A stretch of 64,000 bases of DNA from Eukaryota sp. GEM-RC1 (Eukaryota), in contig JAUFOQ010000001.1 in the NCBI GenBank assembly GCA_040285855.1, positions 2,542,001 through 2,606,000 on the forward strand, read 5' to 3'. The position numbers and the translations under genes were made by a program. Numbering within the stretch: position 1 is the stretch's first letter; each line of letters starts with the position of its first letter. Shown here one piece after another: positions 7,600 to 64,000 of this stretch. Under the pieces are notes generated by a model. The model was not told where the DNA came from. It did not search any database and saw only the letters and a list, made by a program, of their open reading frames with translations.

Positions 7600-8107
7600 T
7601 TTTTGTAATTATTGTAAATATGTTTGTCATAAAGGCATTTGTCGGATTTTATTAGTTTAGTTTTTTTGAGAATTGTTGATTATCACAGCATGTTGAGATT
7701 CTTGTGGTTACAATATTATTTCATTACTTCAATGGCTTCAGTAACGACAGAACTTCACATGATTTAAACTGTACAATTCGTAATTCACTATCTTTCTGTT
7801 GTTTGTAATGTTTTAACAGCAGAACAATATTAGTTCAATTTTCATCTCACCGGAAATTAGTGTTCTTTAACTGTTTTGATTGATTCCTCCAATTCATTAC
7901 GTGTACTACAGTACTGTACTAAAAAAAGGACTTAACACCATAACATACAGGGTTTTTACTTTCAATACAGCTCCAATACAAAAAAAGCATCACAATTAAC
8001 ATTATTGTAATGGTTGGCCTCCACTATATCAAACCCAATAATAGAACAACAAACAAAAGTGATTGAGACTGTTTCTGAAGATTTCCCGAGAATCTTCCAC
8101 TTTCCAA

Positions 8108-35995: not shown

Positions 35996-36055
35996 TTACA
36001 AATTGTGAAGATACTCAAAACGAACCACTGCATTTCTCTCCTTGCTTTGCTTTTC

Positions 36056-37543
36056 ATGTCATTCTCCCTTCCCCCTGCAGAAACTCTTTCTATCATCCTC
36101 GATGAACCTTCCCTCTGTAATCAAACCATCACATTTGGAGAAGAGTCTATTGAAGTGAACAAATTCATCCTTGCTGCTCATTCTACCTACTTTCGGTCTC
36201 TTTGGTTCTTGGAGTTTGGTGATAGAGACGAAAACCCAATCGACTTCTCCCATCTCCCTGTTGATTCCAACAACTTTCTTGCCTTCATCAAGTCCTTCTT
36301 CGGACGATCATTCACCCTCAACGAGAACAATGCCTATGACTTCTACTACCTTGTCCACTACTTCCAAGTGGACAAACTTATTGTACAAGTGGAAAACCAC
36401 CTCAACACTCATATCGTAACCTGGGCTTGGTTAAAACCATTCATTAAAGAGGCAAATGAAAGAAATGACTTGAGAGCTCTGGAATTTGTTGGTCCTTTCT
36501 TTCCTAAGATTGACGACCTTGTGATTGATGACGTGATGGAAATCACTACTGAAGGGTTACAAACACTTTCAAAATACTGTACTTCCACTCAATCTCAATC
36601 GTGGTTCATCAAATCAGTGGTGGAATCAATTTTGAATCAAAGTTTTGATTTGAATGAATTTTTAACTGTATTAAATTCTTGTTCAATTGAAGCCTTTTCT
36701 TTTCAACAATGGGATGAGTTTCTGTTTGTTCCTTTAAAAGATGTTGACGAATTGGAAGCCGATTTGATGAAGTTTTTCTTTACAAGAGTTAAGAATCTTT
36801 ATTTTGACTCGTTGGTTAAGGAAAATTCTGATTTGAAAGAAGAAAATTCTGAATTGAACTTACAGAATGCTGAATTAACGACCAAATGTTCGGATTTAGA
36901 AAGCAACAATTCTGATTTAAACACACTTACTACTCATTTAACAACTGAAAATCAGAATTTAACTGCTAAAATGTCTAAAGAAATTGCTAAACTAAAACAA
37001 GAAATTGAACAACTTAAAAAGACAACTACAGAAACTCAAGTGGAGTCTCAATCAGTTCCTCAATCAAAAGTGATTAGATTCTCTCCAACTAAGAAACAGT
37101 CTCAGTTACAAGTTAGTGGGGATAGAAAGAGAGTTGTTCATGGAAGTGGTGATTATGTGAGTAGAAATATCTTGGGAGAAGATCCACTTCTTCCAGGTAA
37201 TGAGTATACTTGGAAGTTGAGGTATCAGGGGGATACTGAGAGTCTTTTTGTTGGAGTCATTGACGAGTCAAAGTTTAGTGTTGAAGGTGATTGTCATGGG
37301 AGTGCTCACTGTTTTGCCAATCATGGTAGTGTTTTTAGTTGTCTCTCAGGAAAGCAAACTCAATGGAATCGTGGTGAATTACTCGAAATCAATGTAAATC
37401 TCATCAATCACACTTTAACAGTCAAATCCATGAGTAATTCTTCAATTAATCTGACTGGAACTCTTCCCAGATTAAGTAGTGGTAATTATTATCCATATGC
37501 TAGGTTATATTATAGTGATCACGTTCTTGAAATCGTTGAATAA
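36056..37543 (+). CDS. BTB - coiled coil - B30.2/SPRY-like protein, copy B (intact)
   Basis: BTB motifs (VNKFILAAHSTYFRSL..F, YLVHYFQVDKL), heptad repeats, SPRY-like GNEYTWKLRY..VGVI..GELLEINVNLINHTL..YYPY. Confidence 0.88.
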   Translation: MSFSLPPAETLSIILDEPSLCNQTITFGEESIEVNKFILAAHSTYFRSLWFLEFGDRDENPIDFSHLPVDSNNFLAFIKSFFGRSFTLNENNAYDFYYLVHYFQVDKLIVQVENHLNTHIVTWAWLKPFIKEANERNDLRALEFVGPFFPKIDDLVIDDVMEITTEGLQTLSKYCTSTQSQSWFIKSVVESILNQSFDLNEFLTVLNSCSIEAFSFQQWDEFLFVPLKDVDELEADLMKFFFTRVKNLYFDSLVKENSDLKEENSELNLQNAELTTKCSDLESNNSDLNTLTTHLTTENQNLTAKMSKEIAKLKQEIEQLKKTTTETQVESQSVPQSKVIRFSPTKKQSQLQVSGDRKRVVHGSGDYVSRNILGEDPLLPGNEYTWKLRYQGDTESLFVGVIDESKFSVEGDCHGSAHCFANHGSVFSCLSGKQTQWNRGELLEINVNLINHTLTVKSMSNSSINLTGTLPRLSSGNYYPYARLYYSDHVLEIVE

Positions 37544-42657: not shown

Positions 42658-44190
42658 TTATTCAACAATGTCAAGAACGTGATTACTATGACCTAATCTA
42701 GCAAATGGATAATAATTACCACTACTTAATCTAGGAAGAGTTCCAGTAAGATTAATTGAAGAATTACTCACGGATTTGATTGTTAAAGTGTGATTGATGA
42801 GATTAACATTGATTTCGAGTAATTCACCAGGATTCCACTGAGTTTGATCTCCTGAGAGACAATCAAAAACTGAATTACCATAATTGTGGAAACAGTGAGC
42901 ATTCCCACAACCACCATCAACACTAAACTTTGACTCGTCAATGACTCCAACAACAAGACCATAAGTATTCCCCTGGTACCTCAACTTCCAAGTATACTCA
43001 TTACCTGGAAGAAGTGGATCTTCTCCCAAGATATTTCTATCCACACCATCAATACCACTTCCAACAACAACTCTCTTTCTATCTCCACTAACTTGTAACT
43101 GAGAATGTTTCTTAGTTGGGGAGAATCTAATGACTTTTGATTGAGGAACTGATTGAGACACCAATTGTGTTTCTGTAGTTGTCTTTTTAAGTTGCTCAAT
43201 TTCTTGCTTTAGTTTAGCAATTTCGTTAGACTTTGTAGTAGTTAAATTCTGAATATCAGTTGTTAGACGGGAAATTGTTGTCTTCAAATCATGAATTTCC
43301 GTTGTTAAATCAGTAGTTAGTGTGTTGAAGTTAGAAGTGTTACTTTCTAAATCCGAACATTTGGTAGTTAATTCAGCACTCTGTAAGTTCAATTCAGAAT
43401 ATTTGTCTTTCAATTCAGAATTTTCCTTAACCAACGAGTCAAAATAAAGATTCTTAACTCTTGTAAACAAAAACTTCATCAAATCGGCTTCCAATTCTTC
43501 AACATCTTTTAAAGGAACAAACAGAAACTCATCCCATTGTTGAAAAGAAAATGCTTCAATTGAACAAGAATTTAATACAGTTAAAAACTCATTCAAATCA
43601 AAACTTTCATTCAAAATTGATTCCACCATTGACTTGATAAACCACGACTGTGATTGAGTGGAAGTACAGTATTTTGAAAGTGTTTGTAACCCTTCAGTAG
43701 TGATTGCCATCACGTCATCAATCAACAGGTCGTCAATCTTAGAAATGAAAGGACCAACGAATACCAGAGCTCTCAAGTCATTTCTTTCATCTGCTTCTTT
43801 AATGAATGGTTTTAGCCAAGCCCAGGTTACGAGATGAGTGTTTAGGTGGTTTTCAACATGTACGATCAGTTTGTCCACTTGGAAGTAGTGAACAAGGTAG
43901 TAGAAGTCGTAAGCATTGTTTTCATTGAGAGTGAAAGATTGTCCGAAGAAGGACTTGATGAAGGTAAGAAAGTTGTTAGAATCCACAGGGAGATGGGAGA
44001 AGTCGATTGGGTTTTCGTCTCTGTCACCAAACTCCAAGAACCAAAGAGAGCGAAAGTAGATAGAATGAGCAGCAAGGATGATTCTGTGTACTTCAATAGA
44101 CTCTTCTCCAAATGTAATGGTTTGGTTGCATAGGGAAGGTTCATCGAGGATGATAGAAAGAGTTTCTGCAGGGGGAAGGGAGAATGACAT
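42658..44190 (-). CDS. BTB - coiled coil - B30.2/SPRY-like protein, copy C (intact)
   Basis: 510-aa ORF from MSFSLPPAETL, near-identical to copies A and B outside the variable loops. Confidence 0.88.
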   Translation of the reverse strand: MSFSLPPAETLSIILDEPSLCNQTITFGEESIEVHRIILAAHSIYFRSLWFLEFGDRDENPIDFSHLPVDSNNFLTFIKSFFGQSFTLNENNAYDFYYLVHYFQVDKLIVHVENHLNTHLVTWAWLKPFIKEADERNDLRALVFVGPFISKIDDLLIDDVMAITTEGLQTLSKYCTSTQSQSWFIKSMVESILNESFDLNEFLTVLNSCSIEAFSFQQWDEFLFVPLKDVEELEADLMKFLFTRVKNLYFDSLVKENSELKDKYSELNLQSAELTTKCSDLESNTSNFNTLTTDLTTEIHDLKTTISRLTTDIQNLTTTKSNEIAKLKQEIEQLKKTTTETQLVSQSVPQSKVIRFSPTKKHSQLQVSGDRKRVVVGSGIDGVDRNILGEDPLLPGNEYTWKLRYQGNTYGLVVGVIDESKFSVDGGCGNAHCFHNYGNSVFDCLSGDQTQWNPGELLEINVNLINHTLTIKSVSNSSINLTGTLPRLSSGNYYPFARLGHSNHVLDIVE

Positions 44191-44254
44191 GAAAAGCAAA
44201 GCAAGGAGATTAGAAATGGTTCTTTAAAAGAACTTCTTTTGAGTATCTTCACAA

Positions 44255-45790
44255 TTTGTAATTAAAGACTCTTTACAGATCAAGGGGACAAAAGTACATG
44301 AAACACTATACACTGATAATTTCTGGTCAACACTACCACAGTTTTTATCTTAGTTGGCAATCACACGACTTTTTTCCAAAAGTGTGATTGTGATCACACA
44401 AATCACAATCACACTTTGTGATAACACGGATCACAACTTCGTGCAGTCTGAATAAAATTAGATGATGAATAATAACTTTGTTATGTTTTATATTATGTAT
44501 AATAAGTATTTACACTGATTCCGAGTTAGAATGCTTATTGCCAGTCTTTGAAAATGATGATGATGATGAAGGAATAGTTGAAATCGAACCAATTGTTCAG
44601 GAAGAGATTCCAGAAACTCCAGTGCTTGACGATGTAGTTGAAGATTTACATGTGGAGTTGATTTCTCATTGTGTAGATCAAATGACTGGAAAATGGCATA
44701 GAAACACTAACTCAAAATCAACTGAAAGAAGTGTAAGACCAGCCAATTTGATCGATAGTTTTTCCGCTAAATTGTAGCAATGCTACTAAATACATACTAT
44801 TTGAACACATTCTTTGAGTTCGATACACATTGTATTAACACTTGAAATTGCGATACAAAAAAGATGTATTTGTATTTTGTATCTGTATTTTGTGTTCTGT
44901 ATGTGTATTGTGTATTTGTATTCTCTATTTTTGATACCAACTGTTTTCCCCTGAGTGTTCACTTATCGATGTTGAAAAACAGAAAGCCAAAATAACAGCC
45001 CTTTTCAACGTAAAAACGTAATGAACACGACAAAGGAGATCAGTTTGTCCGAATGTTTTGAATCCGTTGAAGTTCAAGCAGTGTTTGAGCGAAGGTAGTG
45101 ATACCTTATGTTCGTGTTTTAACAACGGAAAATTAATAGATGTATACATTCTCTCTTTGTCTCTCACTTTGACAGTCATAGATGTCATAGATGATTTTTG
45201 GACATGTGAAAATCAAATATCAAAGCAAGTATCAAATTGAAAAGGCAATTACGTTCCTGATTGTTGCTCTAAAATTGTTCAAAGATTTTTGTCTTGTCTC
45301 ACAGCTATTGATACGTGTATGTTAATAAAGTGACAAATGCTGTTTTCCAACTTTCATTGTAGAGTATATTGATTGAGTACATGTTAAGGATAGATTTGGT
45401 TCGAATTTTGTTTATCAAAACTGTGCATTTGGTAATCACAAATCACATTGTGATCACACATTCTGAACAAAATGTGATTTATGTGATCACACGCTGTGAT
45501 ATGTGATTGCCAACTATGGTTTTTATACAACTTTTGATGATTGATTTAAATAAGTTAGGCATAGATCGAAACAGAGAAAAAATCAAACGGTTATGGCAAA
45601 TTGATAAGTTAAATGTCTAATGCTGAGACTTACAAATAGATCCAAAATCAATTTAAAACTGAGAAGCCATTTCACCAATACTACCAAAAAAAGAAATAAC
45701 AAGTGGAACAAATACAAATTTTGATTGAGTTTAGCAACATCTATGGAATGTAATTCATTTTTACGTTTGGGGCTGTTTCAAGGTGGTTGA
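44255..45790 (-). mobile_element. 3' remnant of RLE-type non-LTR retrotransposon, copy 5, split by a hAT insertion
   Basis: 44255-44348 and 45519-45790 join into sequence matching copies 1-3 (CACTACCACAGTTTTTAT|ACAAC..AAACGGTTATG..CCATTTCACCAATACTACC). Confidence 0.7.
44349..45518. mobile_element. Non-autonomous hAT element (1170 bp)
   Basis: 17-bp TIRs C(T/A)TAGTTGGCAATCACA, perfect 8-bp TSD GTTTTTAT (44341-44348 and 45519-45526), many ATCACA/TGTGAT subterminal repeats, no transposase ORF. Confidence 0.88.
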
Positions 45791-46594
45791 AACCACCATA
45801 GTTAACAATGACTGGCGTCATGACTCAGTAATTCCTACATTTCCTACAAAATTCATACAACAATTTCTGGAATTCTTAGAATAACGAGTATTTCTGGAAT
45901 TGACGTAGTTGTTGGAGAATTTTTGTAAAAAGGTCAACTTTCGATTTTGGGAATCCTATTTTAGATTGCTCCATAGTGACTAAGCCTACCCCATGTGAGT
46001 ACCTCTCAAATATTTAGCACAAACTAAACAGGCTTGGTACCATCACCCTCAGAAAGATAATTCCTATCCACATTCTTTAAAAGCAAAACTGGTAAATATT
46101 GTTCAAATATTCAATGTTGAATTCTCTTTGAATTTGAAATTGTGATGGTCATGTTTCAAACAACTTTTTGCACTAACCAGTATAATCCAATTATACAAAG
46201 GAACCAACCGTGACTTGATCCTGTTTGTTAAGTTTGTTAAGTTTTGCCCAGCGAATTGAACATCTACAATTTTTTAAGAATTCCTCGAAATACTAATTCT
46301 AGTGTTACAAAGATGACCTTCAGGAATTATTACCATACCACTACTACTTATACAAAGTACTTATTGTCATACATTTGAAAAAAAAAGATAAATTAATTGT
46401 TTAATTAACTAAAAATTCTAAATAGAGAACAACATTTTCTGTCAGTTAAGAACAGAAAAATACTGCAGATCGCTACTTAAAACAGACGGCATCCCAAAAT
46501 CGCCAAAACAGAAACCCACATATTTCAAATATTTCAAACTCAAATAATTCAAATATTACATATAATACAAACCCATTCAATTAATTCAAAAACG

Positions 46595-48116: not shown

Positions 48117-48777
48117 TGTAGATGTCGAACACTGGTGCATACTCCCCAAAATCATTTTACCCCAAATACTCTTCACCCCATAACCACATATCCCCAAACT
48201 GATACACTTATACCTTCTTTGATGGATTCCATACATCTCTTGATATCCAGTGTTGAGCTTCTTTCAAGATAGAGACGTGTTTGCAGGTATTCGTTCTTAG
48301 ACTTGTGAACCGTGTTCAACCATGTCATGAATAAAATCAACGTTGTACAACCATCTTACAACACATACATCACATTGACATCTTATCCTCCAAAGGAAAA
48401 CACTAAGGTTCGCTACAACTCTTCTGGTTTGCTACAACTATGATAGTGTAATACACTGATGTGTCTTCAGTCATTTTTGACTGTATTTTTGCATAGCTAA
48501 ATTGAAGCTAATGATGTGTTTGTAGACAGTACAATGTACCAAACTGACCAATTGCAGTTGTATTTATAGGAGTCAGATCAAATTCTGAATTGACTGCACA
48601 CAAATAATTGCACCTCAATACATGCCCTTTACTTTAACAAACTGGGACCTTCTTCTAGATGGCGAAGAATTTCAACAACTTCGTCAGGATGCTATCTGGA
48701 ATGAGACTAAGGTCAACGACATCAAGTCCATGAAGCTTCCACAGAAGACTCAAAGACACAAAGTTATAACTACATGT

Positions 48778-49308
48778 ACAACATTTGGTGATACAACATT
48801 TGTAATGACAACATTTGGTGATACAACATTTGTAATGACAACATTTGTAACTACAACATTTGGTGATACAACATTTGTAATGACAACATTTGTAACTACA
48901 ACATTTGGTGATACAACATTTGTAATGACAACATTTGGTGATACAACATTTGTAATGACAACATTTGTAATGACAACATTTGGTGATACAACATTTGTAA
49001 CTACAACATTTGGTGATACAACATTTGTAATGACAACATTTGTAATGACAACATTTGGTGATACAACATTTGTAATGACAACATTTGTAATGACAACATT
49101 TGGTGATACAACATTTGTAATGACAACATTTGGTGATACAACATTTGGTGATACAACATTTGGTGATACAACATTTGTAATGACAACATTTGTAACTACA
49201 ACATTTGTAATGACAACATTTGTAACTACAACATTTGTAACTACAACAATTGTAATGACAACATTTGTAACTACAACATTTGTAATGACAACATTTGGTG
49301 ATACAACA
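48778..49308. repeat. 15-bp minisatellite, 35 units in three main variants
   Basis: ACAACATTT+GGTGAT / +GTAATG / +GTAACT in irregular order (525 bp plus a partial unit). Confidence 0.97.
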
Positions 49309-49410
49309 GTGTCGTATGTGTAATGAATTGTTGACATTGATATTTTTTTCTTCTATATATAATGTCGTTAAACACAACCAATACAATATACAATCTCAAT
49401 TTAAACAAAC

Positions 49411-51211
49411 TTAACTAACACTACTATATCCCCCCATCACCCTCGCAAACATCACAGCCAACGAAAACGACTCCTTATATCCAATCCCACAACAATACTC
49501 ACACATCACTTCACGAAATTCCTCCAATATTCCTAAACACTGTTCATCACAAGCCAATTCATCATTTAAATCTAGTATCGACACAATCAAAGTATTGGTC
49601 AACGACAACACATTAAAGTACTTGTCCCTATCATTCAAATGAAAACTCAAAATTTTGGCCATCAATAAATTTAAATCTTTTAACAATTGCAGTTTCAATT
49701 TCATATTTGAAAGACTGTTTGGTGTTGTATCACCATGGTTCCAGTGCAGTGGTACAATATTGTGGACAATTGTGAGAACTTTTGTTTCTGTCTGCATTGC
49801 AATACTATGAGTATTGTTCAAGTTGTTTTCAAGGTCTGTCTGAATACCAAGAGAATTTGTTATTCTGTTGATAGATTCAGTGGGCTCATGATCTGTAACT
49901 TTTTTTGATAATTTCAAACTAGGTAAATTCGAATTTGGTTTGAGAGTATTTCGAGACAATAGATTTGGTCTCAATTTAGGCAAAGTAGTAACTTTGGTTG
50001 TTTTTTTCAGTTTTGGCACAGGCTTGTTAAAAATTAAATCAGAATTGATGGCACTTACACTTTGACCATTGAGACACTCATCTTCATCATCATTCACAAC
50101 AAAATCATTCATACTAGACGACGCATCGTCATCATCAGTTTCATCATCTCCACTATCACTTCCAGAGACAACAACTTCATTATCGAATAATTCTAAAACT
50201 GAATTAGAAGTGGTATTCAAATTTTCAATTTTTGGAACATCTTTTTCCACCAAATCTTCCTTAACTTCTTCACTGACTGGATCAAGAACATCAACAGTTT
50301 CTATACTTTCACCAACAATAGAAATAATATTTGACGAAAAGTCATCAAAAGTCTTCAACACAGAAGGCCAATTTCTAACAATTTTTTCATCTTCTAATGG
50401 CAAAGGATAAAGAGGTTTTGTAACTGGTCGACAGGGGTGAAAAGTGGAATAATACCACTGATAAAGATCAATTCTTGGTTTGGGAAATCTTGAAGAAATA
50501 TCTAAAATTTTGATTGAGTTCCAGTTCTTCACCCTACTCAATGTAACGTACAATTGGGCATACTCCCAAAAATTTAAGGAAACTTCAATTCCTTCAATTG
50601 TTAGACCCTGAGATCTATGGACTGTTATTGCCCAACAAGGACGAAGAGGATATTGCAATCGGGATGCTATAATTACAGGCTTTTTCTTCTCATTCAACAC
50701 CTCAATTTCAAATTTAGTCGGAATAATTTTGATTGGTTCTTCGTCCCTCCCGAATCTTACATTAATGAAATGTGAACTTTCCGAAAAATCAATAATTTTG
50801 CCTTTTGACCCATTTACTAGGCCCAGATCTGGTTTGCTTTGGGTAAACATTACCAAACCCCCGACGACACAGTGAAATTTTTGTTCGGCAAAATCGTTTA
50901 GCCTACTTGATAATTTTTTTTACATTTAAATCAACAGCCTTTTCCATTTGTTCCTCATTAGGCTTACCAAATGCCCAACTTTTAACAATTTCTGATTTAA
51001 TTAAGGGTTCATTGAACTTATCGAGGGAATGAAATTCAACATTTTCATTCCCTTGTTCACATAATAATTCAAATTGCTTTAAATTTTCGTCGGCGACATC
51101 CTTGTTTCTAGCAAATAATTTGGTTGGACTTTCAATATTTTTGGCTAATGACTTATGTTTCAATAAAATATGTTTCATATAGTCATTTTTCAGTGTATGA
51201 TGTTGATACAA
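49411..51211 (-). CDS. PIF1-family (SF1B) DNA helicase, C-terminal half only, with long acidic tail
   Basis: KLFARNKDVADEN (motif IV), GLVNGSKG, RLQYPLRPCWAITVHRSQGLT (V), QLYVTLSRV (VI). The two ORFs join if one base is removed from the 8-T run at about 50914-50921. No Walker A/B visible. Confidence 0.8.
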
Positions 51212-51228
51212 ATCAATTTACACTGGAA

Positions 51229-54200
51229 ATGTACAGAGTAAACCAAGAAGTTATTAAAGATTTTGCTAAATCGACAGAAGCTGTTCCAAATTTTCAAACA
51301 TTGGTCTTTGATATTGCGCAAATTCTTCTGTTAATTGAAGAGGACGAAGACACTGAAAAGATTGATACTGAAAAGAATGATACTGAAACAGCTGAATCCG
51401 ATCAATTGTATACTCAAAATGCTCTTAATGATATGTGGAATCAATTTAAGGCTATCAGAGATTCATCATGGACTTCTCAACTACTGTCAAGATTTTTTAA
51501 TTTGTGTTCTGTAATTGAATATTATATGTATGTGGATACAGCTGATGTCATCCGTATTGAGAAGGAAACAGTCATTGAAACTGAAAAGATGAAGAAACAG
51601 GAAACATCATTGAAACTGAAAAGAAGTTGAAAATAGAAAAGTTATCCGACATAGGTATACCTTATTGGAGAATTTTTTTGGAACAAGGTTTTGTTGCTCA
51701 AACTAGAAGCAAGGGAAAGAACTTTTATGAATAAGAAAACCCATACTATAAGACGATGACGATCCACGTCATCACTCGTCAACACTACCTCTTCTTTCTC
51801 TTTTCGAAGAGATACTTTCCAGAGGATTCAAGAAATGATTGGCGTAATTAGACGATGTGCTTATGGAATTCACTTGATGGACTTTGAGAGGACATTCTCT
51901 TGCAAAATGACCCGTTTTGTTGCACTTGAAACAAGTACCTTCTTGTAACCGTGAAGAGCGTGTGAAAGTCCTACTACGTTTCACGTCACTGTTCGTACTT
52001 GGAATATCAGAGTCAAGAGATTCATTTCGGGTGTCTCTCTTTGTCCATAAAGACACTCGGGCAAGATCGACTAGCTCGTCGGTAAGGGTAGATACCAAAG
52101 AAGGCAAGTCTGTGATGAGAGAATCTTTTATCCTTGATATCAAGGACGAGCGTAAGCCTGAAGGGTAAACACCCTTCGCAAACCGGATAAGAAGAGAGGA
52201 GTCAGGTAAACCAATCCCGGAAGCCCTACTACGTACCTGTAGGAATTGCCTAAGGTAAGCGGACACACGTTCACGGGGGTTCCCTATACGGACATCCAGT
52301 TTCAGCTTATCAGCGGCTGCTACGAATTCTTCATAACTGCTAAATACAATTAGAGACTGAAGATGCTCCAGGAAGGCATCATCCGAAGCGTTGCACTCAG
52401 GGTTGCAAAGGACAAGCGCTTCTAACAGGAAAGGATCTGCGAGTAATCGAGCTGGTACTAAAACCTTTTTGTCACAGACGGAACGATAAGTCTTCCATTG
52501 TTGAATGAAAGAACAGATCTCCTCTTCGTCTAGGGAAGACAGACTGGGTCGCGTGTGTAAACAGGACGACATAGAAAGGCACAATAATTATTGTTGCTCA
52601 AACTAGAAGCAAGGGAAAGAACTTTTATGAATAAGAAAACCTATACTATAAGACGATGACGATCCACGTCATCACTCGTCAACAGTTTGAAAGTGCAAGT
52701 ATGTTGCTGTTCCAATTGTCTTTTTGTGCCTATCATCATTATACTGCACAAACTTCTCCATGTCTTACGTCTTTTTGTCTATCGGCTATTAATTATTTAG
52801 TCTCAATGACATGGTATCTGCCAAATCACCAAGACTACTGTGAGTTATTCGACATATACACAAAATGGAGACATCCCCCTCTATTTTTAAAAAGAACATG
52901 AAACGGTGGAGATTGCACTGCCACAAGAGGAAAAAGTTGACTCTATTGAATATCCCATCAATACCTCAAAATTAGCTAATCTAAAATCTTTTGTCCGACT
53001 GAGCGAATTTCTAAGTTCGGTTGTTGATATTTTGACCAAAAATGATGAATGGAATACTGCCGTTGACGCTGACCAGCTTAACTTTGAATTGGTGTTGTCA
53101 TGTCTGCGGTTAATTCATAGTGCACGGAATTGCCGTATTGCCTTTGTCAATGAAGGATTACAAACTTTTTCGATCTGATTGAGATGATTCGTCTAAATTA
53201 TATTGATGATAATTGTATTATTCGTTTCATCGTTTCTGGTGAAACAGGTTCGGGTAAATCAGTTTTAACTGGCGTTGTTGTTGTCATGGTTACTCTGGAA
53301 CCCATCATTGTCTGCCAACCACGAATTTTACCAGCAACAAAACTATCAAATTTTATCAACGATTTGTGTGATACTACTTTTCCCTTGTCTGGATACCGTA
53401 CAGGCAATAAGAACACAAATATCCCTCTGAATTCACACAGGTTTATTGAAGTTCAAACTGCTGCTTATACTTCTAAATTTATAACGAACAACAAAAATGT
53501 TGAAAAATTTATGACAATTATGGTTGATGAAGTCCATGAACGAAAATGTGATATTGACATTTTGTTAGCTCAGCTGAGGATTATTTCTCGAACTCCTCGA
53601 TCTCCTTTAGGGCACAAATTGAGGGTTGTCGTTTGTTCAGCTACTATGGACACTCCAAATCCTTGTTTCAGATATTTAACTCAGGATTGTAGGAACCAGT
53701 CATTTTATTTGAATTGTGAAAACAATTATACCATCCATGCTACTGGCAGAACCAACCCACTTGTTGTTGTTGACTATGACTGCATTAGTGTCAATACTTT
53801 TTCCCAGACACCGTTGGTAGTCAACTTATCCAAATCAGACTTTTCGAAGATCGTGAGGTTCTACGCCATTTTAAGTACCACTTTTGTAAAATATATCAAT
53901 ATTTTACTAGCAGTGTCTGTCGTTACTACTCTCATTTCGTCAAAAATTTGAACCCAATTTCACACAAGAGTATAAACTTCAAAGCATTGGCTCAAGTTTG
54001 TCTCTGTTATTACTCGCTTGCACAGTCAATATTCAAGCGGTTTTCTCACTGTGAAGGATTTACGTTGCTTGTGTTTCTTCCTGGTAGTCCAGAAATTACT
54101 ACGCTTACTCAGTACATTGAGAATGAGTATACATTTCTCCTTAAACAGAAAAAAACCTGATCTTGATGTATCACGTACAGTTAAACCAAATGTTCATCCT

Positions 54201-57200
54201 TTATATTCAAGCCTGGATTCGAATCAACAAGACACGGCAGTGGCGAAACCAATGGAGAATCAATTCAAAATTGTTCTTGCTACAAATATAGCAGAATCTT
54301 CACTAACAATTGACGGTGTGAAATTTGTCATTGACTGTGGGTTGTCGAAACAAACGGATGTTGATGATCTTCTGGAAACTTACCATTGCTCCATTGCTTC
54401 TTTGGACCAGCGCTCTGGTCGTGCTGGTAGAAATTCAGCTGGATTTGCGTTACGTCTTGTAAGTACAAAATTCCTTCCAAACCGTTTTCCACGACTAGAC
54501 TACGACAAACCTGAAATATTGACATGCTCATTAATTGAACCATTGTTGACGATGAAACAAATTGCTACTGGCCCTTTCATCAACGAACTGCCAGATATTC
54601 CTTCATCAGAGAATATCCTATCTACAGTTGATGTGCTCTTCCGCAACAATGTTCTCACACAAAACAACCTCGATTCTGAGTTGACTTGTTTGGGGAAGTT
54701 GTGCAGTAAGGCGAATATTTCGTTCTTCAATTTTAAATTCTTGTTTTATTGTGTTAAAAATGATTATCTCTCTCAAGGGTTGATTATGTTAGCTGGTATC
54801 AACTCTATGTCGTTTCTTCGCTGTCATCGTACTTTTGATTCATTTTATGATTTATTCAAATTTTCAGAATCAATTGATGTATTAAAATCTCTATCAACTT
54901 TGGGTAATGATGAGGAAATTTCTGAATTTGTTTGTTCAGATATGTTTTTAAAATTATCACTGGTTGATTACATTTTTCGTGCAAAATTTACTAAACTTCC
55001 GGTTGAAAAATACGATTCAACAGAACCAAGGTATAAAGGCGCTATTGATAATCTATCTAGATATGTACATTTAAAAAAACTAGAGAGATATTTGAATGAA
55101 CTAAGATCTCTTGTTTCACGGTTCCAGTATATGGAAGACTCCCCACCTACTCTTGTAAAAAAAATTAGTTAATCTTAAGTCCACTGCCTTGATGCTGTTA
55201 AATTTTGTTACCAATCCTTCCGAATCTACTCTCGTTGAATTTCTTCAACAATCATCGATTTTTTGTTGTACTTTTTGTGACTCTTCAAATTCAGCAATGA
55301 CTTTCTACCAAGCAGTTGTGGCCTCGTATCCCAATAAGGCCTTCCACACAACTGTGGTAAACAAGTCATCTTCTCAAATCCAATTGAAACTGTATGGCAG
55401 AGTTAAAGACAAAGAATCTTTTGACAAATTTATTGAAACGTTGTTTGGTAAACAGTTTGTTGTTAAAGGGTTGTTAAAACAGGGTAAGACTCCGAATTTT
55501 GGTATCTACTTACAAGACAATGAAAGTTCCACTGCAATATTTACATCAGAATTTTCTGATGAGTATCGAGATCAATTGTTCATTCACAAGTGTAGTGGAA
55601 ATGTAAGTTCAATTAAGAAGTTCAAAATCAAATTGTACTTTGACCACAATAGATTCTTCAGTGGTCGTACGATTGTATGGAATAAGGCAACAGAATTTAT
55701 TAAAGACAAATCTTTTTGGGAAATGTATAGTCAATTGTATCATTGGGATCACATTGAATGTTGTGAGAAAAAAACTATTATGCTACAATTTGAAGTTGCT
55801 GTAAAACCATGTACTGATTTAATTCAGTACAATCGTCTTGACTATGAGAAATTTTATACAGTCAACTATAACAAGACACTGTTTCCTCTTCCTACTGTTC
55901 TAGCTCCTACTAGTGATACTGCAAGTTACCACAATGGAATTTTTGTTGGAGACAAGCTGCCCCAATTATTATCATTTATCCCGTGCACAACTAATTTGTT
56001 CATCATATGGTTAATGAACTTCAATATTAATTCAGAATCAGAATTAGAATTTGAAAAACCAGTTGTCAAGATCGGTAGACCAGATCACTGTTCTGACAAC
56101 AATTATCTTCAATTATATTTATTAAGTCACGAGCTAGATCTTAGTGGAATATTTCAAGTTAAACGTCTCTGTAATGTGTTCTGGTCTTATCAAGAATCAT
56201 TTATTAAATCAACTTTTGGATGTATCAACAGATTACGCATTCTGGTATATTTGACTGAACAAGGAATTGTTTCTTCAGTTGATTTATCCGCTTTTTATCA
56301 AAGAATTGCTTGTATTGATTTGAGTAGATTTAAGGATCAATCAGTTGCTGTGGATTTTGTCGAAAGAAGACATCATCATTTTCAACTTTTGAAATTTCAA
56401 TTGAGAGATGAAAGCAACATGTTGATGTGTTTTAATCCTTCGTGTCCAATCTGTGGGATACTATCTGTTGATCTAAATTCTATTTTGAATTCTGAAATTA
56501 CAGTTCGTACTGAACAAATGATTGCTGAAGGTACTGAAATTGCTGAAGGTACTGAACAAATGATTGCTGAAGGTACTGAACAAATGATTGCTGAAGGTAC
56601 TGAACAAATGATTGCTGAAGGTACTGAAATTGCTGAAGGTACTGAACAAATGATTGTTGAAGCTACTGAAGAACCATGTGTTAGTGATTTATTGTCTTGG
56701 ACTAATACCAATTGTAAGGTCAATACTTATTCTGCGACATATTTGGGACAAAGTTGTAAAATTCTGAATTTTGTACATAATTCAGGTTCTTTGTTCTATG
56801 TTGTATTTGAACAAGAGTTCAAAATCCACATTGGAACATTAGATTTGGCAGACAACAACAGTGTCGTTGAGCATGTGACGGAGGTTGAGGCTGTGACGGA
56901 GTTCGATCCTACTCCTGTCGTGTTGTTTGTTGGCAAAAATTTTGTTTTCTACAACAATGGTAAAGTCCTCAAATTTTTTAAACGTAGCTCGGGAAGAGTT
57001 GAAGAATTCTGCAAACCCTTTGAACATCAATTAACAATGTTTGCTCTTCATGGCCAATTGGGTGGATATGCTGTACTAGTAGCTTCTATAGGTCCCAAAT
57101 TTTTTCTACATTACAAGAAGCCATCTGGAAAAGCTGGTCGAAAAGCATTGCCATGTGCACCAAATCGCAGTGACCCCAATGTTATTGACATGGTTGGTAC

Positions 57201-58380
57201 ATCCAATTCTTTCATTTGTATATCGAATTGTATATTGTCGGTTATTTCCAGTTACAGAAACTGACAAAAAAGACCTAGAATGGGATTCTCTTTCAATATT
57301 GTTAGATTTAGATGATTTAACAATTGAACGCGGAGAACAGTTCAAAAAATTAAGACGTTATGACAATTTGATATTAATTGTTGGTACATTTACCATCCGA
57401 AAGCTAGATTTGTATGAAAAGCAGCTGATTGATACAAAAGTAAAGGATCTTTGTACATGTCACCACGTTGACAGAATTATTGATGCAGTCTATGTACAAC
57501 GTTATGACACAATAATGTACATAACTGAATTAGGGTTTTGTATTGGTTTCGGTTTGAAACTGCCACTGAAACAAGTACAGTTTATAATTGACTGTTCAGT
57601 TGGTGCTTTAGCTGTTCAATTACAAAAAATTGAGTTTTGTAATGATTTGGATTCTTTTATCATTCTGAAAAATGATGGCACACTTTTTATTCTTTCAGCT
57701 TTATCTGTGCTGTGTATTTCTGGTGCATTTTTAGAAGTTCGTGATGTTCGTCACTGTGATGCAAAAGAAATTAATCAAATTTTTGAACAACGATGTCTTG
57801 AACTACGTGCTTTTCATACACAGTTGACTCAAGAACCGTCTCAATCTATTTCTGAATCAGTCGTTGAGATTTCTGAGAATGAAGACAAAGCTTTTGTCCT
57901 CGTTGATACATCACCAAAACTGCAATTCATCATTTGTGTCTCAACTGTGGATGAGAATATCAGCTATGTCAAGCATTTGTTAAGTCAAGTCTCTGTCAAG
58001 TCTCTGCAAAGGTGCTAATTACAACTGATGTAAATTCACCGAAATTATATCAAAATCTCAGACGTGATCAGTCAGTTCCTTTTACCGTGGTTGAACTGAC
58101 CGGGAAACAAAGTAAACGTTCCAAGGATTACAGTCTCAGTCAATTCAAGAAGGATGATAAGTCTGTTATAATGATTAGTACTACTCAATTAGCGGTTAAC
58201 CATTCTGTTCAGGCTGATCTTTGTATAATCTTTGATCTACCAAGTGATGCCAAACTTGTTGCCAAATTGTATGAACAAAATCAAAAAATCGTAATCTTTT
58301 ACGATTCTATCAGTGATAAAGACAAAAAGCAAAATTTGCAAAAAAAACTTCTTTGGACCCTCAGGATTGCCAACACCTGA
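51229..58380 (+). CDS. Giant (~2,050-aa reconstructed) DEAH/RHA helicase, fragmented by homopolymer indels and an LTR insertion
   Basis: GETGSGKS, CQPRILPA, DEVH, SAT, VFLPG, PLYS, LATNIAESSLTIDGVKFVIDCG, QRSGRAGR, HA2-like LTCLG. Eight consecutive same-strand ORFs abut with no intergenic gaps. The C-terminus resembles a second helicase-C domain (F..DDKSVIMIST..CIIFDLP). True start uncertain. Confidence 0.78.
51692..52684 (-). mobile_element. Gag-only LTR retroelement (993 bp, 93-bp LTRs)
   Basis: LTRs 51692-51784 and 52592-52684 (TGTTG...CAACA, 1 mismatch), 4-bp TSD GTTT (51688-51691 and 52685-52688), minus-strand polypurine tract GAAAAGAGAAAGAAGAGGTAG abutting the 3' LTR. Confidence 0.93.
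51772..52572 (-). CDS. Retrotransposon Gag with CCHC zinc knuckle
   Basis: Intact ORF from MSSCLHTRP; capsid-like VSAYLRQF..FAKG..LRS and CFKCNKTGHFARECP. The stop lies inside the 3' LTR; no pol. Confidence 0.85.
   Translation of the reverse strand: MSSCLHTRPSLSSLDEEEICSFIQQWKTYRSVCDKKVLVPARLLADPFLLEALVLCNPECNASDDAFLEHLQSLIVFSSYEEFVAAADKLKLDVRIGNPRERVSAYLRQFLQVRSRASGIGLPDSSLLIRFAKGVYPSGLRSSLISRIKDSLITDLPSLVSTLTDELVDLARVSLWTKRDTRNESLDSDIPSTNSDVKRSRTFTRSSRLQEGTCFKCNKTGHFARECPLKVHQVNSISTSSNYANHFLNPLESISSKRERRGSVDE
56509..56670 (+). repeat. In-frame coding repeat (TEQMIAEG / TEIAEG units)
   Basis: 24- and 18-bp units ACTGAA(CAAATG)ATTGCTGAAGGT, about 7 copies, inside the helicase gene. Confidence 0.9.
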
Positions 58381-58806
58381 ATTGATGTAGTCTTTTAATA
58401 CTTCATTGATGTTTTTTATTATGTAGAACAATATACTTTATTACAATTTATCTTTATTTATCTTTATCTGGTCTAAATTTATAATTTATACCATGATTTT
58501 TCACATAAACTATGCTACCACATCTACACTGAATATGTAACAAATTGGTCTGGTTTTATATGTCACATTTTCTGACATACTAAATCTGTAACAAATTTCT
58601 GTCAGATTTCAGGTGGATGAAATTCACGGATTGTTCTGTATGTAATAACTATGTAACAAAACATTGATATTTAGACTACGTCTGACACATTTCATTGAAC
58701 ATTGTAATATTGTACAAATATTGTTTATTTGATGTGTTATTCTTATATGTTATACAAAATTATAAATACATCTATATTGTACTATTTATTCTCTATCACT
58801 ATCAAT

Positions 58807-60379
58807 TCATTTTTTTAAAGTCTTTTTGATTCCAAAAGCACTTGCAGTGGTTTTAATTCTTCGTTTTCCTGTTTTTTTCCCTAAAACGTCATTTTCGTCT
58901 TTTGTCTTTGACGATTTGTTTTCAAATTTTGTTGTTGAAACATCAATTACATTTTGTTCTGTCATCAAATCAGGTTGTACAGTCTGAAGTAGATCATACA
59001 TAACAAGACATGGATTTTTTCTTGATCTGTTAGTGTATAATTTTGTCTGATTTTGTTCCTGACGTGCATCAACCATTAATCCTTGTAAAATTAAAGTAAC
59101 ATTCAAACAGACAATCCATCCACAGATAAGAGACGATGTTGACTGTGCAAAAGGTATATAGTAGTCCACCTTATACTCTGGTAATCTTGCAAACAGATTT
59201 GTTTCCCCACATCCATAAACAGTTCTAAAAGGATTAACGATTAATTCAGTGGTTAATGAGTAATCCAAAGAATCATAAATATTGAATAATAAAACATTTG
59301 CTTCATTTAGAAACAATTCAATAAGAATCCAATGACCAGATCCTGCATCACCAGGAACATGTTCTTTCACCAAACATAATGGGGCAAGAATTCTTTTTCC
59401 TGATTTTAGTGTATCGACAATAGCCTTACCAGAATGTAAGGCATAGCATATTGGATCACCTACCAACTGTTGAGTTTCTTGAGATTGCAGGAACTTGTAC
59501 CTACTTGATTTAAATTTTTGGAATGCAAGCATCACAATGAAATCAAGTTCAGAACTCAACAAGAGTTGTGTTTTACCTTCTCTATCATCCTTTGTCAACA
59601 TTTGTTCAATATCACAAAATCCAAATTTTAATTTTGAATTTATGTAAAACTGATCACTGATTAAATCTACAGAAAGAATCAACGGGTTACGTTGTTTTTT
59701 GCGTTTCATAGGTTTAGATAAATTAGCATTATCAATGACCGGAACAGGAACTATTTCAGATGGTTCAGAGAAAATAGAATGAATATGATTGATTGCGAAG
59801 TTATCAATACGACGTTTTGGTGAAGGAAAAACGACTTGAGATGGAGTATCGTCAATGCGAGTAATGTCACAATCATGTAAAAGATTAGGAGATTGAGGCT
59901 GAGGAGGAGGAGGAGAAAGAGCAATTGTAACTCGTTTAACGTCTTTGAGTAGATCCTTAAGATGATTTAGAGTTGAAGTTGTTGAAGGAAGTGGAAGAGA
60001 TATGTCACGCTTCTCATAAGAACCATCAAAAGGAAAGAGATGAACAGTTTCTAGATCAACATCTAGCACAATGGCAACGGCTGATTTGTAGTTGAGGCAA
60101 AAATCCATGGTACCTTTTTTTGAGATCATCTGTCAAGTCAGAGGTTGAGACTTCCGTTATGTGGATAGATTTAGTTCTCCAAGAATTGTATGTTCCATAA
60201 GGAAGAAGAACAAGTGACAAGTTAACTGCATACTTATCAGCAAGCTTTACAACAAGTTTCATATATGTTTTGATGGTACGGGAACGACTTTCTTGTTCAG
60301 AAGTGTTTCTGAGTTTGAAGATTGAGTAGGACATGGGAAATTCTGGTATAGACTTTATTACAGATTTCGTTCCAGACAT
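58807..60379 (-). CDS. Ulp1/C48-family cysteine protease (~520 aa after joining)
   Basis: GSGHWILIELF (His), IYDSL (Asp), Q..SSLICGWIV (Gln/Cys). ORFs 60056-60379 and 58807-60129 join if one base is removed from the 7-T run at 60115-60121. Basic, NLS-like C-terminus. Confidence 0.75.
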
Positions 60380-60732
60380 GTGAATTTACATTCATTACTT
60401 CATTACTTATTGGAATTAATTCATTTTCTTCTCGTCTACGACTATACATGGCTTTATAGCAAATGAATTCAGAAGGGAACTAAGTCAATGAGTTTGGTTA
60501 TACGATTGACAGTCTTAAAGACTTCTTAAGTAATCACTAATGGTAACGGATGATGGTATAACATAAGAGTTGTTTTGATGTTTTGACACTCTACTGACTA
60601 CAAGTGATAGTAGAATTGTACTGTAGTCTAGACTACAGGGATGACTGAAACATTTCATTTTCCTCTCTCCACAAATGTTGGTTGTTTTACATTCTAACAG
60701 ACACTCTGTTCCGTACAAGGCTCCTCTTTTGG

Positions 60733-61144
60733 CCCAATATGAGGCGGAATCCCCTGCTTGGATTCTATCTCCGTTGAGTCGATATATGGATAGCTTTTTT
60801 CTCCTCTCCCGTTGATGTCATGCTGCCACCTTGTTATTTGTATTTGACCCAATATGAGGCGGAATCCCCTGCTTGGATTCTATCTCCGTTGAGTCGATAT
60901 ATGGATAGCTTTTTTCTCCTCTCCCGTTGATGTCATGCTGCCACCTTGTTATTTGTATTTGACCCAATATGAGGCGGAATCCCCTGCTTGGATTCTATCT
61001 CCGTTGAGTCGATATATGGATAGCTTTTTCTCCTCTCCCGTTGATGTCATGCTGCCACCTTGTTATTTGTATTTGACCCAATATGAGGCGGAATCCCCTG
61101 CTTGGATTCTATCTCCGTTGAGTCGATATATGGATAGCTTTTTC
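60733..61144 (+). repeat. Tandem array of ~3.6 units of 114-115 bp
   Basis: Units start at 60733, 60848, 60963 and 61077. They are identical except for a 5-T versus 6-T run. Confidence 0.97.
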
Positions 61145-64000
61145 TATGTTGTGAAAACACTTCCATCTCTGCTGTTGTATGTACTCTACTTCTATTCATG
61201 TGTTATCCCTTCCCATCCTCCGTTCCCAAAAGACCTCACCGCCGACGGTGACATTGAGTCCAATCCCGGACCGTTGTCCAAAGACTCCCTAGAGTATCTG
61301 AATCCTGGCCAATGGATAGATGATTACGCCCTTTCCGAATACTCAAAACACCTATTCAAAGAAGCAAACCTTGATTGGGAATGCTATTTCATTACTCCAG
61401 ATGAGATGTGGTCAGATTTTTTAACTGATGGATACTGCCAAAATAAGATTGATGACGCCCGGGAGAGAAGCACCAGATACTTCGCTGTTCCTCTCAACGA
61501 TGCTATGAATACAACAGGTGGATCTGGAGGAGTTCATTGGGGTCTAATGGTAATAGACTGTGCGGAAAACAACGCGATATTTGTGGATCCAATTGTTGGT
61601 TCTTCTTATCTAAGTTCTGTTGTAGATGAATTATGTAGGAAAGTAACATTGAACGTACAGAGGGTCAACATCACCAAGACACAGACTCCTAATGACTGTG
61701 GTATTTATGTTATTGGTTATATTCAAAAATTTGTTGAACTCATTTCAAGGGATGGCATCAATCTATCTTTGATCTCTATTGAACGTGCTTTAATCCAAGT
61801 TAACAATGAACTTAATGCTGCAGATCTCCGTAAACAGATTCAAAAATTGTTTACTTATGTTGACGATCAATTGTTCATCAAATATTCCAAAATACTTGTG
61901 GAATCAACAGGTTTAATCTTTTATGACTATGTAATTGGGCCAACTGATTTATATCCGTTATTATATGGTGACCAACCCTATAGTAAATATCCATTTTCAA
62001 ATTTTTTGACGCAGAAATTCTTCCAATGTGGTCAAAACAACCAACAAATGCTACTTGTTCCTGTCAATAGTGCAATGTGTGATCTTACTGCTGATGGTCG
62101 TCATTGGGGTTTAATTATTCTGATCATTTCATCTCCTACAAGTCATATTTTATTCATTGATCCGACCTACGTTGAGGATGATTATGCCAGAGAATTTCCT
62201 GCTAACCAAACGCCAGTTGCACTATCTTCCTCCAATTTATTTACAATTGTGTCAAAAATTTATTCAGTGTTGTCAATGTGTGAAACCAGAAATATAGAAT
62301 TTATTTCATCAAATATCAAACATACTCTAACTGACTCTGGTTTTTGTGTTCTCGAATACATTGATCTTTTAATGAATTTAGATCAATCTGTGGTCATAAG
62401 GTGGACTGATGTTAAAGAACTGCTGGGTAATACCACTATTGCTGTTCACGAGTCTCGAAGTAAAATTTTGGAACATTTTGAAACTTTTAGTCCTGTTGAT
62501 TTGTCGCATGTGCCAAAAATGCCAGCCGTCCCTCCAAAACGTTTGTCCAGTTCAAGTGTTTCAACCGGTGCCACTCCTCAAACTAAAGTTTCTGCCATTA
62601 ACTTATTGCCACCGACTGTATCAAAACCTGTTCCTGCGTCTCTCACAGGTTTGCGTCTAGCTAGCACTAAAGCATCCACTGGTTTAAGCACCAAAAAAAG
62701 TAAACCCAAACTTGCATCACCAAGAGGTTCACCTCGAATTAAACACAAGGAATCCAGAACAACCAACTCCCTTGTATCAACTGGTATCACTCCTCAAACT
62801 AACATTTCTGTGACCACCGTATCTGAACCCGTTCCCACGTCTCCAACTCCTAAACCATCAATTACAGAACAAGAACCCAAACAACCACAAAAGTTCTGTG
62901 TAATTGAGATAGAAAGTGTGATCTCAGATCCTGAACGCTTGAATCTTAAAGTCGTTCGAGTTAAACAGGAGCCAGAAGTAGACGAAGAGATTGAATCAAC
63001 TTCGGAAGGTATTCCACAAATTCAGGATACTACTTTTGAAATTCAGCGTGATCCAGATTTAGACCCAATTGTGTCAATCTCTCTTCAGTTTACCCATGAT
63101 AAATTTGCAAATGAAACTCACCTATTCACCCATAATGTTTCAGAAATTTCACTTCCTAATTGTGTAGTTCACACGTTTACAACTGAAAAATCAATGTTAA
63201 CAAATTTCATTACATTTTTAAATCTTAACAAGCCCAGTTTGTTAATAAGTTATGATTGGCATTTAGATACTTTTCCGTTTTTTGTATCACGATGTAAAAA
63301 ATTAGAAATTGACATTGATTATACAATTGATGATTACATTTCTTCTCTTCCATCTTGGTTCCATAGATGGTGCAAACCAACGGAAATTGGTCCTTTTATT
63401 CCCTTGACTTGAATTCAGTATTGAAGAAGTTGTATGTCTTTAGAAGAGGTCGGTTTTTGGAAAACGTGACAACAATTATGATGGACATGAATAATCATTC
63501 AAGAACATTTGAAAGTTTTGACAAGGAAAATATCTTCCTTAAGAGAATATTTCATTCTTTAGACAATCCTCTAGTGTCAGATGAAGAAATGAAGGTTAAA
63601 ACCGAAGAACGTCAAAACAAAGCGCCATCTGTGAAACTAAAACCCAAGGCTGTTATGGAGATTCGATTGTTAGCAGAATTAACAAAACTTAATGAACTTT
63701 GGGAATCTAAAACTTCGAGAGACACTTCGAGAGCCACTTTGTTATTGAACTCAATCAATAAGTTGTTTCTAATACAATACATTCTCTTTGATCTTCTCGA
63801 TGAAAAGAAGCAAAAATTAAGAGAACGACCACCAATGAAGGTGGTGAAAAAACGATTAGATAATGTTGTATCAAAGACTAAAGCCAATTGGATGGAGTCT
63901 TGTGCTAAGAGAGCTCATCGTGAGACTTTGTTGCTCTTTAATCTTTCTTTCGAAAATGGCAACTGTTTGGTCCATTCATCTTCAAAATTACGTTTCACAA
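60935..64000 (+). CDS. Polyprotein: repeat leader - 2A - SENP8/Ulp-like protease - inactive protease copy - low-complexity linker - degenerate PolB exonuclease (incomplete at window edge)
   Basis: DLTADGDIESNPGP; W.DD..PLND..GGVHWGL..D..QTPNDCGIYVI; second copy with HW..D but DSG; then FCVIEIES..PDLDPIVSI..FTTEKSML..F..F....PSLLISY..FPFF..R. After CCC at 63401 a shifted frame (LDLNSVLKKLY...) stays open to 64000. Confidence 0.75.
61232..61273 (+). other. 2A-like StopGo ribosome-skipping motif
   Basis: DLTADGDIESNPG/P matches the D(V/I)ExNPG-P consensus exactly and is in frame directly before the protease domain. Confidence 0.88.

Follow-up and report, generated by a model that had tools for sequence, protein, structure and literature searches.

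As RNA-guided nucleases, Fanzor1 proteins take their guide from the right end of the element that carries them, and restorative homing is the leading model of their role in the parts of PMC10432273, PMC10530073, PMC10711439 and PMC13565253 that deal with function. They reside in diverse DNA transposons, some families of which have variable 5' parts; each of the classified Fanzor1 elements has either a transposase in cis or recognisable ends, a few families being left unclassified (family descriptions in Bao and Jurka 2013, PMC3627910). Here we examine a window of 64,000 nucleotides from Eukaryota sp. GEM-RC1 (GCA_040285855.1, contig JAUFOQ010000001.1, positions 2,542,001 to 2,606,000 of the forward strand), and in particular the block under study at 48.6-64 kb, for which an earlier note, made from the letters alone, had proposed a self-replicating element or a viral relic with a B-family DNA polymerase (PolB). 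All coordinates below are positions within the window. Judged by its paralogues, the supposed PolB polyprotein of this block is a 2A-Ulp-exonuclease-Fanzor1 gene with no polymerase. Whereas the described Fanzor1 proteins stand alone and have about 600-800 amino acids (aa), the Fanzor1 found here forms the C-terminal part of a 2A-(Ulp)-exonuclease polyprotein. The block itself we read, with a probability of roughly 0.57, as an internally deleted copy of a multi-copy Fanzor1-carrying DNA element, likely a transposon of at least 18 kb, whose Fanzor would cut element-free sites so that repair copies the element back.

The window holds the start of the nuclease. Its first ~29 codons (63,835-63,921, plus strand) are 92-97% identical to the paralogous gene models P0095, P0100, P0105 and P0004 up to about 63,921, where similarity to the paralogues ends; the last 80 bases of the window match no compared sequence, and this end of similarity is, on the alignments, a real rearrangement. 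The N-terminal parts of P0095 and P0100 are 91-95% identical to the window's last open reading frames (ORFs), and the two models match SpuFz1 at E 6.5e-11 and 1.8e-10, respectively, with GtFz1 matched too. The Asp of their VDPNQ motif falls on SpuFz1 D383 (RuvC-I), in the numbering of catalytic residues given in PMC10432273. Exonuclease and Fanzor lie within one model in P0100, while P0035 covers 2A, protease and exonuclease and extends into the REC region of the Fanzor. No polymerase domain or palm follows the exonuclease in any paralogue extending past it; in all of these the next domain is Fanzor1, and the idea of a self-replicating element or viral relic built around PolB is thus not supported. 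Five close models stop at one lysine-rich point about 80 residues past RuvC-I, and one model shifts frame just before it. A true truncation of the Fanzor after RuvC-I is nevertheless weakened by P0106, which reads past the common premature stop, and by P0107, which has a WNRD motif aligned to D606 (RuvC-III) and a C-terminal CCHC knuckle. The RuvC-I Asp aligns to D383 in P0095, P0100, P0107 and P0115, and the RuvC-III Asp to D606 in P0107 and P0115. With the Fanzor N-terminal fragment P0029 alone, a PDB sequence search gave no match and the ESM Atlas returned fungal leads only, below threshold; a single-sequence structure model of P0100 had a predicted local distance difference test score (pLDDT) of 34 and was unusable. 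An Rfam scan of 44-64 kb found no ribozyme or structured RNA above chance.

An HMMER search with P0099 produced 250 matches at E up to 0.001, the best 150 of which were listed. Among the 149 new matches listed P0115 alone has a 2A motif, and among 45 scanned Fanzor matches it alone has the exonuclease. P0115 is a single ORF of 1,473 aa that comprises a leader, the 2A motif DVEANPGP, a disordered linker without a protease, a PolB-type exonuclease and a complete Fanzor1. Its exonuclease motifs are intact (FDVET, YNCDKFD and YCVND; PF03104 E 5e-13; among PDB exonucleases yeast Pol delta matches best, E 4e-4), and an Asp, a Glu and an Asp of its Fanzor1 align to all three RuvC residues, D383, E541 and D606. 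In a structure model built on an 88-row alignment the Fanzor part is confident, matching PpFz, SpuFz and GtFz at E 1e-21 to 4e-16, and the exonuclease part has a pLDDT below 50, its fold not being confirmed. Over exonuclease and Fanzor, P0115 and the window's family share 26-30% identity. The two domains are fused in frame across three lineages that are only 26-45% identical, which argues for an old, maintained fusion and not for an insertion scar. A quick tree of 44 rows (8 family rows plus 36 of the 64 full-length matches; four rows fill less than half of the columns, and three of the eight family rows are fragments whose fusion state was not seen) places the eight family rows on one side of a branch with a Shimodaira-Hasegawa-like approximate likelihood ratio (SH-aLRT) support of 99. 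Also among the matches are P0111, P0113, P0114, P0116, P0117 and P0119, fragments that belong to additional Fanzor subfamilies and share 31-51% identity with the window's family; P0116 ends in a CCHC knuckle, like P0107.

The front of the window's gene begins with a leader of tandem repeats (60,675-61,143, plus strand), with units of 114-115 bp here and an in-frame unit of 38 aa in paralogues. It is one of five unrelated, interchangeable types of tandem-repeat leader, all open in frame, that occur in the family. The 2A ribosome-skip motif reported in the earlier note was recovered as DIESNPGP (61,250-61,273, plus strand); the consensus, as given in the entry for bioRxiv 10.64898/2026.09.24.754024, is D(V/I)ExNPG/P. 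The motif is intact in all of the models that cover the protease start (25/25, from 61 models screened). Immediately downstream, the first Ulp1/C48 protease domain (61,274-61,870, plus strand; PF02902 E 1.5e-5) has the catalytic H, D, Q and C and may act on host SUMO/NEDD8 pathways. The second Ulp1-like domain (61,871-62,490, plus strand) is homologous, with Ser in place of the catalytic Cys and the Gln missing, and is predicted to be inactive. A third had been claimed on the minus strand, where an ORF of about 505 aa (58,807-60,334) shows the Ulp1-like motif order HW, YDSL, Q..CG. This ORF has no Pfam, NCBIfam or PDB match, and scores 3.5 bits when the best of 200 shuffles scores 3.3 bits; the third domain thus shows the motif order but has no statistical support. 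Of the three Ulp/C48 domains proposed, one therefore stands intact and another survives as a homologue with Ser for Cys.

The PolB-type (Pol delta-like) 3'-5' exonuclease domain lies at 62,890-63,830 on the plus strand (PF03104 E 6e-6); it had been correctly noticed, but the sequence that follows it is Fanzor1 and not a polymerase. A frameshift at a T4 run near 63,395 interrupts the region, and paralogues read through there. Of the DEDDy motifs (ExoI DxE, ExoII NxxxFD, ExoIII YxxxD), the window's two close subfamilies have lost ExoIII in 22 of the 22 models showing it and have an altered ExoII in 31 of 31 models, the alignment at ExoI being ambiguous. In these two subfamilies the exonuclease is predicted to be inactive. 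Leaders, three protease types and two exonuclease types are mixed among copies, and from this shuffling we infer frequent recombination among them.

The 2A-Ulp-exonuclease-Fanzor1 gene is represented by at least 60 named models (a lower bound, each search having spanned a limited length range), which merge into about 55 loci spread over 11 contigs, every model carrying the label Eukaryota sp. GEM-RC1. With the polyprotein as query, 13 proteins were found among 7,993 candidates scored, 12 of them labelled, again all from this organism. When ten window ORFs were looked up by exact sequence six were found, and five further candidate sequences had no entry. Clusters differ in size, with 19 members for PIF1, 4 for gene X, 6 for gag, 1 and 5 for pieces of the DEAH region, and 16 for the minus-strand ORF (these components are described below), and the window's pieces are mostly 91-99% identical to their paralogues. 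Paralogue searches, co-location and chimeric models support a large, multi-copy mobile element that is not an ordinary host locus, in line with the giant mobile element considered in the earlier note, and no housekeeping gene was found among the ORFs scanned at 48.6-64 kb, as had been stated. According to its description in PMC11316075, the assembly behind the named models was built on nanopore sequencing corrected by short reads; it has 14,268 predicted proteins and a repeat content of 48%. Twelve frame break points were placed, by hand and not blind, three of them not pinned by a paralogue and one occurring in paralogues only; ten fall at A/T runs of at least 5, one at a T4 run and one at no run, against a background of 10% of positions. 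Since the breaks sit at homopolymers and differ from copy to copy, and correctly framed alignments contain no stops, the frameshifts probably represent assembly error in repeats, which is likelier than decay.

Further to the left, the block contains the 3' portion of a Pif1-family helicase that stands alone and carries an acidic extension at its C-terminus (PIF1; 49,411-51,193, minus strand). The reported PIF1 half is real: it shares 92-95% identity with full-length paralogues (which match PF05970 at E 1e-32), has a single frameshift, at a T9 run, and lacks the Walker A/B half that the paralogues have. PIF1 matches cellular Pif1 (E 1e-40) more closely than it does the Helitron transposase Helraiser (E 2e-22), and eight of 14 named paralogues begin at the helicase domain. 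No Rep domain was matched in the PIF1 paralogue models, in which a shared upstream frameshift error could hide one. At 51,187-51,193 the 5'-truncated PIF1 meets, head to head, a 5'-truncated gene X (3' part at 51,193-51,630, plus strand), an uncharacterised protein with paralogue matches. Paralogue matches end or begin at this point, and the junction near 51,190 is, so aligned, a real rearrangement, namely an internal deletion that removed the 5' halves of PIF1 and gene X. The longest gene X paralogue, P0066 (342 aa), has a CCHC-type knuckle upstream of the part matching the window; an ESM Atlas search with gene X gave no usable match.

The DEAH/RHA-family helicase region extends over 52,806-58,380 (plus strand), as had been seen, and amounts to about 1,850 codons in frameshifted pieces. 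Its DEAH domain resembles cellular Prp2/Prp43-type helicases and is followed by a long uncharacterised C-terminal stretch. This stretch includes an in-frame 18/24-bp repeat (IAEGTEQM units; 56,507-56,672) and ends in a second Helicase_C-like domain (57,955-58,380, E 2.5e-6), for which no partner N-terminal RecA domain was recognised. Between gene X and the DEAH region lies an insertion which, like the head-to-head junction, is absent from the earlier note: a nested, gag-only long terminal repeat (LTR) element of 993 bp (51,692-52,684, minus strand). It has LTRs of 93 bp that begin with TG, end with CA and are 99% identical (one base different), a 4-bp target duplication GTTT, a polypurine tract, and a gag-like ORF with a CCHC knuckle (51,772-52,572) without pol. 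All tested features of the class were found, and by its structure the insertion is a young non-autonomous retroelement resembling terminal-repeat retrotransposons in miniature (TRIM) and large retrotransposon derivatives (LARD), with at least six copies.

The minisatellite at the left (48,777-49,308) does consist of 35 units of 15 bp, in three main variants and open in three frames. Yet it is probably not the left flank of the element. In the adjoining segment at 48,742-48,776 (plus strand), nine of ten residues equal the N-terminus of the paralogous model P0012, which fuses this segment straight to 2A leader repeats; because P0012 makes this join, the minisatellite probably lies inside the element. 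The comparison suggests that the left end is further left, at about 48,280-48,740. This probable end region forms weak folds only, six frames of 48,280-48,778 gave no transposase match, and a suspected remnant of a Mutator-like element (MULE) at 48.3-48.8 kb was not supported. Within 48,589-49,395, the plus frame of the minisatellite reads as pentapeptide repeats (PF13599 E 1.4e-8, under its cut-off), and its minus frames as NVV-rich and Cys-Cys-rich repeats; that all three frames are open may be chance.

Compared with described systems, the likeness to Fanzor1 (SpuFz1 8GKH, PpFz1 9CF0/9CF1, GtFz1 9CER) lies in the REC-WED-RuvC layout and fold, seen in the paralogues and P0115, and in the D...E-zinc finger...RD catalytic set, complete in P0115. 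Helitrons (RepHel; Helraiser 7LCC), which have TC...CTRR termini or, in Helitron2, hairpin ends, share a Pif1-family helicase and gene cargo, and some have Fanzor1, but no HUH Rep was found here and cellular Pif1 is a far better match to the PIF1 than Helraiser is. Polintons, or Mavericks, have a protein-primed PolB, a cysteine protease, an integrase, a packaging ATPase, capsid proteins and long terminal inverted repeats. The block resembles them in size range, cysteine protease and a DNA-polymerase-related domain; it differs in that no protein-primed PolB, integrase, ATPase or capsid was found in the incomplete copy, and the sole polymerase-related part is an exonuclease of RNA-primed type, followed by Fanzor1. 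Endogenous elements of Nucleocytoviricota differ by a complete PolB and by capsid and core genes, which were not found in the part examined. Mutator-like and KDZ/Zisupton elements with a Ulp1 protease have a DDE transposase, terminal repeats and a target duplication. No transposase match was obtained in the block, and the separate MULE of the window, at 11.6-13.7 kb, does not match it. Fanzor1-carrying DNA transposons (Bao and Jurka 2013, PMC3627910) offer a likeness in the dispersed, multi-copy repeat that acts as carrier. Among them, MCi-2 of Mucor circinelloides and the Helitron2-Fanzor elements CRe-1/2/3 of Chlamydomonas likewise have a variable 5' part on a shared Fanzor-bearing 3' portion, frequent internal deletions and an unclear or trans-supplied transposase, whereas a fused exonuclease, protease or 2A is not described for them in the entries on these families (PMC3627910). 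An N-terminal 2A before a single long ORF recalls 2A-bearing non-LTR retrotransposons (Ingi, L1Tc, CR1, L2 and Rex1), but those have an apurinic/apyrimidinic (AP) endonuclease and a reverse transcriptase downstream according to the domain descriptions in PMC3708506, in place of protease, exonuclease and Fanzor1. On the testable features of an incomplete element, the block thus likely behaves like a Fanzor1-carrying DNA transposon, and not like a virus, a Polinton or a canonical Helitron.

Elsewhere in the window, the MULE transposase (11,650-13,678; PF10551 E 6e-21) is split by one frameshift and ends in a CCHC knuckle like that of the Fanzor model P0107; a second match to the MULE N-terminus is found at 13,725-13,805 on the opposite strand. 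Three dispersed BTB-coiled-coil-SPRY-like genes (10,148-11,701; 35,936-37,543; 42,658-44,223) are 87-88% identical in DNA, and the C-terminal module of a RING-kinase gene (23,483-25,576) is shared with them. The members of this BTB/RING-kinase family have short repeats upstream in common (44,298-44,348 and 45,519-45,794), which suggests that the BTB-type family is itself carried by a repeat. A long, perfect-looking hairpin (45,415-45,527) with weak microRNA-family matches below the gathering score adjoins a repeat found four more times in the window, and is possibly a miniature inverted-repeat transposable element (MITE). By eye, we take 8,063-9,730 to be a pyrophosphate-type phosphofructokinase-like gene and 18,780-20,838 to be a glycogen branching enzyme-like gene; such host genes are consistent with an anaerobic protist.

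For the Fanzor1-carrying element we propose the following scheme. Translation would start in the variable tandem-repeat leader, and the 2A skip would give the downstream protein a fixed N-terminus whatever the leader. With a guide RNA made from the element's right end, Fanzor would cut empty target sites, and repair would copy the element in; at the cut the exonuclease, where alive, would trim 3' ends, PIF1 would extend repair synthesis across the long element, and the protease would strip host factors for repair or silencing of their SUMO or NEDD8. Migrating D-loop synthesis in yeast is promoted by Pif1, and SUMO-PCNA restricts how far synthesis runs (passages on both factors in PMC4608483), and by this analogy the accessory genes would fit a repair-steering role. 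The DEAH block is likely cargo retained in a minority of copies. Primary movement would depend on a transposase located in the deleted part or supplied in trans; as the classified Fanzor1 elements have a transposase or recognisable ends, a hidden or trans-acting transposase is likelier than none.

The block as a whole is best read as one large element whose internal deletions vary, although the missing signal of the minus-strand ORF counts against it. In a co-location test (locus tags taken as positions, copies incompletely sampled, tags without strand), another element gene occurs no more than 10 genes away from PIF1 in 6 of 14 cases where 1.6 are expected (P 0.003), and no more than 15 genes away in 7 of 14. 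The DEAH region has such a neighbour, PIF1 or the polyprotein, in two of four other copies; the pooled count is 9/35 against 4.0 expected (P 0.028), and the gag control gave 0/5. The chimeric model P0093 fuses the minus-strand ORF to the PIF1 tail, and both it and P0012 keep the gene order and strand of the window while joining distant parts of the block, a predicted intron being possible in either. GC content at third codon positions is 0.22-0.30 in five element ORFs versus 0.32-0.45 in seven other ORFs of the window, and 0.42 in gag. A pairing of subfamily A and B copies was considered and dropped (5 close pairs versus about 3.7 by chance). Several observations weigh against the single Fanzor1-driven element. 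The minus-strand ORF is within 10 genes of an element gene in 1 of 14 cases, where 1.5 are expected, and gene X in none of three, and the evidence on copies derives throughout from automatic gene models, in which pieces may be fused through false introns. The large element yielded neither a transposase, Rep or recombinase nor terminal repeats or a target duplication in about 15 kb and the paralogue models, and a guide RNA was not identified. The exonuclease, predicted dead in both close subfamilies, cannot be essential there. Most close models end about 80 residues after RuvC-I, and the RuvC-II Glu is seen in P0115 alone, the region being absent from all close paralogue models. P0115 itself has no protease domain and no genomic context linking it to PIF1. 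The block might instead be a pile of independent repeats, in which a 2A-Ulp-exonuclease-Fanzor1 element, a PIF1 repeat and a DEAH/gene X repeat were nested or recombined. Copy numbers far apart (about 55 loci, 19, 16, 6 and 4), the lack of co-location for the minus-strand ORF and gene X, the one certain nested LTR element and the repetitive nature of the assembly (48%, in Table 1 of PMC11316075) speak for such a pile; the co-location of PIF1, the DEAH copies near PIF1 or the polyprotein and the two chimeric models that preserve order and strand speak against it, and neither a target duplication nor an end motif was seen to separate the large ORFs. We regard it as unlikely.

Spread without any transposase, by RNA-guided cut-and-copy alone, is a likewise unlikely alternative of barely better standing. 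Here Fanzor would break the site, the fused exonuclease would trim it, PIF1 would drive long repair synthesis and the protease would lift SUMO-based limits on recombination. It would account for the absence of a transposase from 15 kb and from any paralogue model examined, for a PIF1 that is nearer to cellular Pif1 than to Helraiser and whose named paralogues open with the helicase domain in 8 of 14 cases, and for copies that are mosaic and internally deleted, and it draws on the same yeast data (PMC4608483, passages cited above). Nevertheless, 55 copies at unrelated sites are hard to reach by homing alone, the interval deleted at 51,190 and all DNA to the right of the Fanzor lie outside view, and the exonuclease is predicted to be dead in the genome's two main subfamilies. 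Stand-alone Pif1 occurs in viruses. That gene and the AT-rich codon use would be compatible with a relic of a large DNA virus or a Polinton-like one in which a Fanzor element had at some time interrupted PolB, as would an exonuclease of the Pol delta, RNA-primed PolB type and the frequency of Fanzor1 in giant viruses (survey results in PMC10432273). Such a relic is improbable, given that no polymerase palm, capsid, packaging ATPase or integrase was found in the part examined, and that the fusion is in frame in the three divergent lineages. Consistent with the earlier note, capsid, integrase and HUH were not found in about 15 kb of an internally deleted copy plus scattered gene models: capsid, integrase and packaging ATPase are missing among 20 ORFs scanned in this incomplete block, no reverse transcriptase was found in the block or its paralogues, and no long inverted repeat in 44-64 kb. 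Three IMG/VR scans, with P0049, alignment A1 and P0115, gave no relative, such scans detecting close relatives only. A metagenome scan with P0049 likewise gave no related locus, and two weak metagenome matches to P0107 (L001 and L002) were rejected as bacterial dehydrogenase loci. No sequencing run was listed for 53,500-63,400, which speaks neither for nor against relatives. The chance proximity of expanded host gene families, finally, is largely refuted and very improbable: the DEAH domain is like cellular Prp2/Prp43-type helicases and other dispersed families do exist, such as the BTB genes of the window, but Fanzor1 and the 2A motif are hallmarks of mobile elements, the copies are 85-98% identical, dispersed and truncated, and word-based searches matched one organism label only.

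No description of a 2A-protease-exonuclease-Fanzor1 fusion was found in the literature searched, which comprised neither subscription papers nor Repbase, and within the same scope no paper joining Fanzor and Metamonada was found; nor is such a fusion mentioned in the main-text passages of the Fanzor census papers, their supplementary tables lying outside that scope. The fusion architecture is thus likely undescribed, and the element likely an undescribed kind of jumping gene. It places a Fanzor1 lineage behind a Pol delta-like exonuclease in a polyprotein that starts with 2A, and in P0115 a single ORF keeps the full set of catalytic motifs for the two enzymes. The role of Fanzor once the cut is made, and a possible coupling of end processing to cutting, thereby become testable, with relevance for compact genome editors. 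The association with a Pif1 of cellular type and a protease of SUMO type suggests that a mobile element can supply factors of its own to steer host break repair, and spread without a transposase, if true, would be a new mode of spread.

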